IMG/VR virus record: IMGVR_UViG_3300025821_000003
DNA: 31,926 bases
Reading direction: 5' to 3' (one strand)
Source: a virus
Shown here: positions 2,614-2,685 of the stretch, in pieces
Layout of the letters: the number at the start of each line of letters is the position of its first letter
Position numbering within the stretch: position 1 is the stretch's first letter
The notes under the pieces: generated by a model
Seen by the model: only the letters and a program-made list of their open reading frames with translations
The model's database searches: none
What the model was told of the DNA's origin: nothing
Made by a program: the position numbers and the translations under genes

Positions 2614-2685
2614 ATGTGGACATCACCTAAAGCAACAGAAATGCGCTTCGGCTTTGAAGTTACAATGTACGTAATGAACAAGTAA
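2614..2685 (+). CDS. pqqA: PqqA-like peptide (PQQ precursor), 23 aa: [23 protein letters not shown]
   Basis: AAGGAA SD 7 nt upstream. The length and the MW..P....R.G.EVT.Y pattern, with the E-x3-Y cross-link pair, match PqqA peptides as I recall them. Confidence 0.7.
   Translation: [23 protein letters not shown]

Follow-up and report, generated by a model that had tools for sequence, protein, structure and literature searches.

In coastal seas and lakes, the methylotrophs OM43 and LD28 are major methanol consumers, and their energy metabolism runs on a single enzyme, XoxF, a methanol dehydrogenase that depends on the cofactor pyrroloquinoline quinone (PQQ). The precursor of PQQ is the small peptide PqqA. 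Passages of PMC7678222 and PMC9851590, citing earlier work, set out the roles of PqqD, PqqE, PqqB and PqqC and identify PqqA as the only part of the pathway to be consumed, one peptide per molecule of cofactor; both also cite Barr et al. (2016) for the cross-linking of a glutamate and a tyrosine of the peptide by PqqE. Virus-encoded PqqA is already known as a kind. Coutinho et al. (2020; PMC7678222) found PqqA in the Lake Baikal viral population VP_266, a predicted Methylophilaceae virus, and put it forward as an auxiliary metabolic gene (AMG) for methanol oxidation, and a 2026 sediment virome study also lists viral pqqA. Here we describe a further member, the pqqA gene of the IMG/VR virus record IMGVR_UViG_3300025821_000003, a DNA of 31,926 nucleotides (nt) that we refer to, at its full length, as the window. 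The initial annotation of this DNA, which picked out the gene from the letters alone, remarked that no phage-borne pqqA had been described, a remark that the 2020 report from Lake Baikal overturns.

The window gene belongs, on its sequence, to the PqqA family, and we consider it probable that it acts as a precursor-supply AMG in a lytic OM43 phage, carried as a self-contained cassette. Whilst VP_266 is a freshwater metagenomic contig that also encodes methanol dehydrogenase, the window has no PQQ or methylotrophy gene apart from pqqA and represents a marine phage close to the cultured phage MEP301 (VP_266 was compared with the window by description, not sequence). The dispersed, orphan PqqA copies of Methylophilaceae resemble the window copy in length, in identity (21 of 23 residues), in the E-x3-Y pair, in the consensus of the ribosome-binding site (RBS) and in their often solitary placement; the window copy differs in its phage surroundings, where recombination and lysis genes are its neighbours, and in having serine at position 4 and lysine at position 6. 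Cyanophage psbA, encoding the D1 protein, offers an analogy rather than a homology: it too is a phage copy of a quickly used-up host component, is near-identical to the host version, is widespread in phages of one physiological guild, and would sustain the energy machinery of the host after host expression falls. D1, however, is a structural subunit of a complex, and the expression and function of psbA in infection have been shown experimentally, whereas the PqqA peptide is destroyed in becoming a cofactor and is known here from sequence. In the literature searched, three things appear to be unreported: the presence of unannotated pqqA in cultured OM43 and LD28 phages, its wide occurrence in IMG/VR and its behaviour as a mobile cassette. 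Nor does that literature record its apparent near-universality in methylophages.

The pqqA gene of the window

The gene and its RBS lie as follows.

2614..2685, + strand: pqqA, an open reading frame (ORF) of 23 codons plus TAA (ATG at 2614, TAA at 2683..2685)
2602..2607, + strand: Shine-Dalgarno sequence AAGGAA, 6 nt before the pqqA ATG, read directly from the sequence

Two profile hidden Markov models (HMMs) recognise the product. The peptide scores 38.5 bits (E=1.1e-9; curated cut-off 21.1) against the Pfam model PF08042 and 35.4 bits (E=6.6e-9; curated cut-off 20) against the NCBIfam equivalog TIGR02107, a margin of 15–17 bits over both curated cut-offs. The layout of PqqA, W2-P5-R11-G13-E15-V16-T17-Y19, is complete, with the Glu-x3-Tyr pair formed by E15 and Y19 inside the stretch G13-F-E15-V-T-M-Y19 (core G-x-E-[VI]-T-x-Y). 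A degenerate DNA pattern for W-x2-P-x5-R-x-G-x-E-[VI]-T-x-Y finds a single match in the window, against 0.00 in 100 shuffles. The two mismatches to the Methylophilaceae PqqA consensus (MWT[TK]...), S4 and K6, fall at the most variable positions of both the host and the phage sets. In its 23-codon length, its ATG and its RBS the ORF conforms to the family, and it is presumably translated; the classical operon context, with pqqBCDE adjacent, is the only one of the sequence features tested that is missing, as it commonly is from host copies. The initial annotation had described a 24-codon PqqA-like ORF at 2614..2685 on the + strand and had named a PF08042 search and an alignment to host-genus PqqA as checks. 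Translation, both HMMs and the Methylophilaceae alignment bear the description out. Its Shine-Dalgarno sequence, AAGGAA, is indeed present, with a spacing of 6 nt instead of the 7 reported, and the identity of about 14 of 23 residues that it estimated with a Pseudomonas PqqA comes to 13 of 23 when counted, Methylophilaceae PqqA being the relevant comparator.

The gene is an orphan, as had been proposed: tblastn with PqqB, PqqC, PqqD and PqqE proteins from ~30 bacterial loci found no match in the window. The exact peptide is also absent from a collection of ~15 billion predicted proteins, and hence no gene caller represented there has reported the ORF. A PDB sequence search with the peptide returned no match, and Rfam, run on the whole window and on 2400..3000, gave nothing meaningful; no tRNAs were found.

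Viral pqqA in isolates and metagenomes

The window is 95–96% identical to the Methylophilales (OM43) phage MEP301 (MW452941). In MEP301 the pqqA ORF is identical in nucleotide sequence and is unannotated, the record having no feature between gp06 (ERF) and gp07, so that 2521..2951 (window coordinates) stands empty; nor does the MEP301 paper mention pqq. A tblastn search of 50,697 GenBank phage records with the window peptide returned 12 records. Peptide identity was 100% in MEP301, 91% in each of an uncultured Caudoviricetes from a spring, the LD28 phage P19250A and Venkman, 83% in MEP401 and MEP402 and 73% in four Melnitz genomes. All of the Methylophilales and Methylophilaceae phage records returned have a complete pqqA of 23–24 amino acids (aa) with an ATG and a Shine-Dalgarno sequence. 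Across all cultured methylophages, by which we mean those returned by the GenBank phage search and those known to us, none of the copies is annotated as pqqA, and the papers on Melnitz and MEP401/402 make no mention of it. Besides MEP301, the unannotated genes include the following.

Melnitz-1 (L245), 4001-4066 (MZ577095, 74888-74953): pqqA, unannotated
Venkman (L242), 4001-4069: pqqA, unannotated
P19250A (L243), 4001-4069: pqqA, unannotated
MEP402 (L244), 621-689: pqqA, unannotated

These phages are mutually distinct isolates, with MEP402 placed by GenBank in the Zobellviridae, Melnitz in the Kyanoviridae and the others in no family. The pqqA genes of Venkman, MEP401/402, Melnitz and P19250A are like that of the window in length and in having a Shine-Dalgarno sequence, and differ from it in position and orientation, with peptides of 73–91% identity to that of the window. 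The Melnitz annotation has instead a 31-aa 'hypothetical protein' that overlaps pqqA from the opposite strand. The Venkman pqqA is antisense; a small hypothetical gene lies on one side of it and the YqaJ/Sak recombination module on the other, and the GC hairpin after the pqqA gene can be read as an intrinsic terminator of the convergent gp26 transcript. Two contigs labelled Acinetobacter phage MD-2021a (E = 0.3) were considered as carriers outside the methylotroph phages and rejected, the contig examined being bacterial DNA: L261 (CAKLQF020000010.1, 105210-111263) encodes ppk (polyphosphate kinase) and a full pqqABCDE and looks like a bacterial chromosome, not a phage. That the search matched a bacterial pqqABCDE locus shows tblastn to be able to detect divergent PqqA.

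Uncultured viruses carry the gene widely. Scanning IMG/VR with the degenerate pattern gave at least 120 contigs, and in all 120 matches listed an ATG lies directly before the W codon or one to two codons ahead of it, giving products of 23–25 aa. Seven further contigs, which came from a retrieval based on YqaJ and not on pqqA, bring the total above 127. Shine-Dalgarno sequences are present in 104 of 105 unique viral upstream regions; the upstream sequence of the window, AAGGAAACTATT-ATG, fits both the viral consensus AAGGAaAAATATT-ATG (105 unique copies) and the bacterial consensus tAAGGgaAATTATT-ATG (110 copies), the RBS being common to viral and bacterial pqqA. PqqB, C, D and E are all missing from every one of these 120 viral loci. 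The neighbour families met most often there are phage exonuclease (YqaJ/RecE-like), Sak, ERF, metallophosphoesterase, endolysin, DNA polymerase exonuclease, primase/helicase, major head protein and terminase. In a comparison that covered the window and short stretches of the cultured methylophages, 77 of the 120 had one or more protein clusters in common with them; viral and bacterial pqqA loci, for their part, have almost no flanking genes in common. Metallophosphoesterase genes co-occur with pqqA in 20 viral loci, among them L252 and L254, where the position of pqqA directly upstream on the same strand suggests that the two could be co-transcribed.

Behind the gene there is usually a hairpin. 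Over the 70 nt that follow the stop, folding energy averages –16.2 kcal/mol in 123 viral loci and –10.0 kcal/mol in random windows from the same loci (p = 2e-24), and a terminator-like site is found on the pqqA strand in 34% of viral loci compared with 0.8% of random windows, with a further 23% of the loci having one on the opposite strand. Orientation varies: of 125 loci, 37 have the gene antisense to both neighbours, which is also the arrangement of the window and Venkman, 40 have it co-oriented with both, and in 22 it closes a co-oriented run. Some contigs have PqqA types unlike those of Methylophilaceae, including ...IRLGMEITAYVMNR and MKWETP...; among them are L005, L014, L016, L020, L023, L030 and L031 as well as L039, L040, L043, L052, L062, L081 and L102, and a few such contigs have portal, Erf or virion genes. 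Phages of other PQQ-using hosts may therefore carry pqqA as well.

Two lines of evidence point to selection on the gene. The substitution pattern is that of a peptide kept under purifying selection: entropy at codon positions 1, 2 and 3 is 0.43, 0.30 and 1.03 (100 unique viral ORFs), and at the 14 codons outside the search pattern pS is 0.61 and pN 0.19, giving a corrected dN/dS of ~0.17 (102 unique viral ORFs). The frame conserved is the + strand pqqA frame, not an antisense ORF of 35 aa. DNA similarity between the window and most contigs is confined to a stretch that begins ~12 nt ahead of the ATG and ends with the stop codon, at 75–93% identity. The other line comes from MEP301-like relatives retrieved through their YqaJ protein (51–55% identity), in which synteny is kept (resolvase, YqaJ, ERF and gp07, with gp09b, gp10 and the metallophosphoesterase on the other strand) and the place of pqqA is not.

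Gap between ERF and gp07: the window, MEP301, L249-L251 and L259
Directly upstream of the metallophosphoesterase gene: L252 and L254
Between gp09b and gp10: L257
No pqqA in the stretch fetched: L256 and L258

Another three loci were not long enough to be assigned. Conservation in related phages, which the initial annotation had made a condition of its reading, is thus borne out by the identical gene of MEP301 and by its presence in seven of the nine informative MEP301-like contigs. On this evidence pqqA appears to behave as a small mobile cassette made up of RBS, ORF and trailing stem-loop. Repeated placement within one lineage, together with occurrence in several distinct groups of cultured methylophage, argues for selection to carry it. 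Unrelated phages of PQQ-dependent methylotrophs have acquired the gene repeatedly.

Host pathway and proposed function

The gene makes most sense against the PQQ pathway of the hosts. A scan of bacteria for the core peptide pattern, with one genome per species, found at least 120 pqqA loci. Among the matches listed, records named to family or genus are mostly methylotrophs (Methylophilaceae, Methylophaga, Methylococcaceae), and the two commonest peptides, found at 44 and 21 loci, are both named by NCBI and UniRef as PqqA of Ca. Methylopumilus or Methylophilaceae. Low-GC genomes, OM43-like and LD28, with an intact pqqA are L165 (Ca. Methylopumilus universalis), L185 and L206; the latter two are metagenome-assembled genomes of 33% GC labelled Nitrosomonadales, L185 coming from a Tara Oceans run and having two pqqA genes in tandem. 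A published comparison (PMC6794327, Table S4) scores pqqB, C, D, E, F and G as present in every OM43 strain covered (KB13, MBRS-H7 and HTCC2181) and in all LD28 strains, which agrees with the expectation of the initial annotation that the predicted host would carry pqqBCDE. The same table scores pqqA absent from the OM43 and LD28 genomes. This absence is an annotation gap, as the copies in L165, L185 and L206 demonstrate, and very short genes are evidently missed in hosts too. Direct retrieval of OM43 pqqBCDE yielded only orphan pqqA copies (L165, L185 and L206) among the matches listed, and the host-pathway check for OM43 therefore rests on Table S4 of PMC6794327; a contig found by a PqqC search was rejected as a source of OM43 pqqBCDE, being a Methylophilaceae contig of 50% GC and not OM43.

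Solitary copies are common in the hosts themselves. Only ~30 of the 120 bacterial loci listed have a pqq gene adjoining pqqA, the other ~90 being solitary, and Methylophilaceae are reported to have 3–12 dispersed pqqA copies and a single pqqBCDE (PMC4109929), the family having multiplied the peptide gene and not the enzymes. Taken together, these figures make pqqA on its own the normal host arrangement.

We infer a chain of events that runs from transcription and translation of the phage gene, through processing by host enzymes, to a rise in PQQ and a benefit to the phage. A phage transcript would supply PqqA, the stoichiometrically consumed component of PQQ biosynthesis, during infection; host PqqD and PqqE would cross-link E15 to Y19 of the phage peptide, and host PqqF/G, PqqB and PqqC would finish the cofactor. 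Periplasmic XoxF, the main energy source of the host, could in this way stay loaded with PQQ while host expression declines. In accord with such a scheme, passages of PMC9851590 cite or report that cell extracts turn added PqqA peptide into PQQ at 70–80% and that expression of an orphan pqqA tracks the rate of PQQ synthesis in another methylotroph. The gene also has the sequence hallmarks of an AMG, namely a viral genome around it (ERF/YqaJ on one flank; gp07, metallophosphoesterase and endolysin on the other), a close host homologue and purifying selection, and the host range of its carriers, as judged from the GenBank phage tblastn and the bacterial scan, tracks PQQ-dependent methylotrophy. 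The initial annotation had suggested that a phage pqqA might feed host PQQ production, and the HMM matches, the conservation among phages and the host pathway all lend support to that interpretation, to the extent that sequence can.

Several points weigh against precursor supply. PQQ and XoxF are both stable, so that fresh PQQ may not matter within one infection cycle. Overexpression of pqq genes has given only modest gains of PQQ in engineering studies (PMC9851590), and the media used for OM43 in some laboratories contain 1 nM PQQ (PMC9004378), which would mask a phenotype in culture. The cassette is dispensable, being absent from L256 and L258 within the stretch fetched. MEP301 encodes no RNA polymerase (PMC8024684), and a host-type promoter is therefore to be expected, but no convincing sigma-70 promoter was found upstream of the window gene, the best candidate being TGCTCA-16-CATAAT with 8 of 12 positions matched. 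Another promoter match, at 2588..2615, was discarded because it overlaps the pqqA ATG and cannot serve the ORF; across the loci, sigma-70-like upstream sites are slightly enriched (7.9 versus 7.2). The hairpin that follows the gene has no T-run on either strand and hence is a stem-loop, not a canonical terminator of the sort that about a third of the other viral cassettes possess. Finally, with pqqA antisense to both neighbours, convergent transcription could interfere with its expression.

Other explanations of the gene, taken all together, strike us as unlikely, though far from negligible. The weightiest supposes that the peptide is made and processed to some other end, as a regulatory signal for pqq or xox or as another PqqE product, or that the locus yields an antisense RNA acting on recombination genes. 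The cassettes lying antisense to both neighbours, the Venkman gene beside its YqaJ/Sak module and the virus-only tandem repeat that follows the stop in a subset of loci would all be at home with such a role. A fixed antisense target is itself unlikely, however, given the 40 co-oriented cassettes and widely varying neighbours; conservation acts at the level of the peptide, which matches host PqqA, and in carriers that track PQQ-dependent methylotrophy, leaving another role unlikely in our view. The initial annotation had offered a different alternative, that the peptide is a decoy or inhibitor that binds PqqD or PqqE unproductively and stops PQQ synthesis, for example to redirect S-adenosylmethionine or slow the host. 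An orphan copy without enzymes would suit a decoy, as would serine residues that are not seen in the bacterial set, at position 6 in 28% of unique viral copies and at position 4 in 9%. The core RFGFEVTMY is nevertheless unchanged, and the window peptide differs from the host consensus only at the two most variable positions of the leader; many viral copies have exactly the sequence of host PqqA, no phage-specific substitution is consistent, and hosts themselves keep many orphan copies. With the peptide inside natural host variation and E15 and Y19 kept, the decoy idea finds no support and seems improbable.

Rather less probable again is that pqqA is not selected for its product, and is a piece of host DNA that was captured, a scar of recombination or a host-gene copy that serves as an attachment site for integration. 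The many dispersed host copies could serve as targets, and a small serine recombinase carrying a Resolvase domain is among the products of the window, whose pqqA lies in the recombination module. Attachment sites, however, usually keep only part of a gene, whereas all of the at least 120 viral copies are complete from ATG to stop, and all but one of the 105 examined have a Shine-Dalgarno sequence. The peptide is conserved with synonymous sites close to saturation, the gene occupies three insertion sites in one phage lineage, and it is found also in Melnitz, a 141-kb phage of the Kyanoviridae in GenBank; the recombinase, for its part, has no large-serine-integrase domain (PMC8024684). A prophage origin, with pqqA as the phage attachment site (attP), was rejected, the 120 bacterial pqqA loci listed having no phage-like genes beside them and the window copy being a complete ORF. 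The reading as a chance ORF resembling PqqA could appeal to its very small size, to its lack of annotation in MEP301 and to the absence of the exact peptide from the 15-billion-protein collection, but HMM E-values of ~1e-9, the shuffled sequences without a single pattern match and conservation with a coding signature in more than 130 viral loci mean that it is effectively refuted.

Precursor supply can be extended to a broader proposal, which we hold only tentatively, as possible rather than probable: pqqA would be a near-universal signature gene of the phages of PQQ-dependent methylotrophs, a minimal cassette repeatedly acquired or moved, controlling PQQ supply and thereby methanol oxidation by OM43 and LD28. 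If so, it would stand for an unusual class of AMG, one whose product is no enzyme, being the peptide that a cofactor pathway of the host consumes as its substrate. Were phages routinely to bring the PQQ precursor with them, PQQ supply would be a bottleneck that viruses have been selected to relieve, and infected cells might oxidise methanol differently from uninfected ones. These ideas are readily testable, as cultured host–phage pairs with pqqA exist (MEP301, Venkman, Melnitz, MEP401/402 and P19250A). Gene callers skip pqqA, and it was consequently missed in the isolate genomes examined; surveys of AMGs overlook very small genes, as this one illustrates, and a 23-codon ORF that pipelines miss could be a practical marker with which to flag methylotroph phages in viromes.

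Neighbouring features of the window

The surroundings of pqqA in the window comprise the following features.

1074..1781, + strand: calcineurin-like metallophosphoesterase gene
2236..2520, – strand: homologue of MEP301 gp07, 94 aa, no family match, divergent from pqqA
2521..2613, no strand: divergent intergenic region between the start of the gp07 homologue and pqqA, presumably with the promoters of both
2682..2690 and 2691..2699, + strand: tandem GTAATACAT x2, overlapping the pqqA stop
2701..2733, no strand: interrupted 13-bp hairpin directly 3' of pqqA, overlapping the stop of the ERF extension (2707..2709)
2707..3353, – strand: ERF-family single-stranded DNA-annealing protein (PF04404, 71 bits), convergent with pqqA, its zero frame ending at 2952

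The minus-strand neighbours are thus a 94-aa hypothetical gene on one side and the genes for ERF, YqaJ and a Resolvase-domain protein on the other, and the antisense placement noted in the initial annotation is confirmed. The minus-strand block runs from 2236 to ~7540, most genes beyond it, including those for lysis and structure, being on the + strand. Both the tandem 9-mer (2682..2699) and the hairpin reported earlier behind the gene are present. The tandem adds a second in-frame TAA two codons past the pqqA stop, and GTAATACAT varies in copy number, with one copy in MEP301, two in the window and L249-L251 and three in L076. The related motif TAATACxTxTAATACA sets a subset of viral copies apart from bacterial pqqA, following the gene at 10 of the 132 viral loci and at no locus among 130 from bacteria; loci with one or other repeat after pqqA include L076, L015, L022, L079, L086, L249-L251 and L257. 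An 81-nt segment with the hairpin folds at –18 kcal/mol on the + strand (z = –2.1) and –25.2 kcal/mol on the – strand (z = –3.3).

The gene had been placed in a 186-nt gap between minus-strand genes (2521..2706). That gap holds only if the minus-strand frame ending at 2707 is coding; in the MEP301 annotation the empty region is the larger one, 2521..2951. The frame in question has no start codon of its own until a TTG at 2817. The ERF ORF (3353..2952, – strand) ends two codons past an in-register A_AAA_AAG heptamer (2964..2958), and the –1 frame is then open for 83 codons, to 2707, so that the fused product would have 215 aa against 133 aa for the annotated ERF. About 215 aa is the usual size of an ERF protein. 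No strong structure was found downstream of the heptamer, and a literature search returned nothing on an ERF frameshift. Every MEP301-like relative examined (L249, L252-L254 and L256-L259) has A_AAA_AAG or A_AAA_AAA in register with a stop two to four codons later, followed by a –1 extension of 75–81 aa that starts K-K-x-[WI]-S-L-[SN]-L-P-G-K. Identity to the window ERF is 58–63% in the more distant relatives and ~58–100% for the N-terminal part across the relatives examined, and the window extension can be aligned to the C-terminal end of the ERF of L006, which is full-length. These features make it likely that ERF is produced by a programmed –1 ribosomal frameshift. If the extension is coding, the hairpin 3' of pqqA abuts the end of a coding region and not empty DNA.

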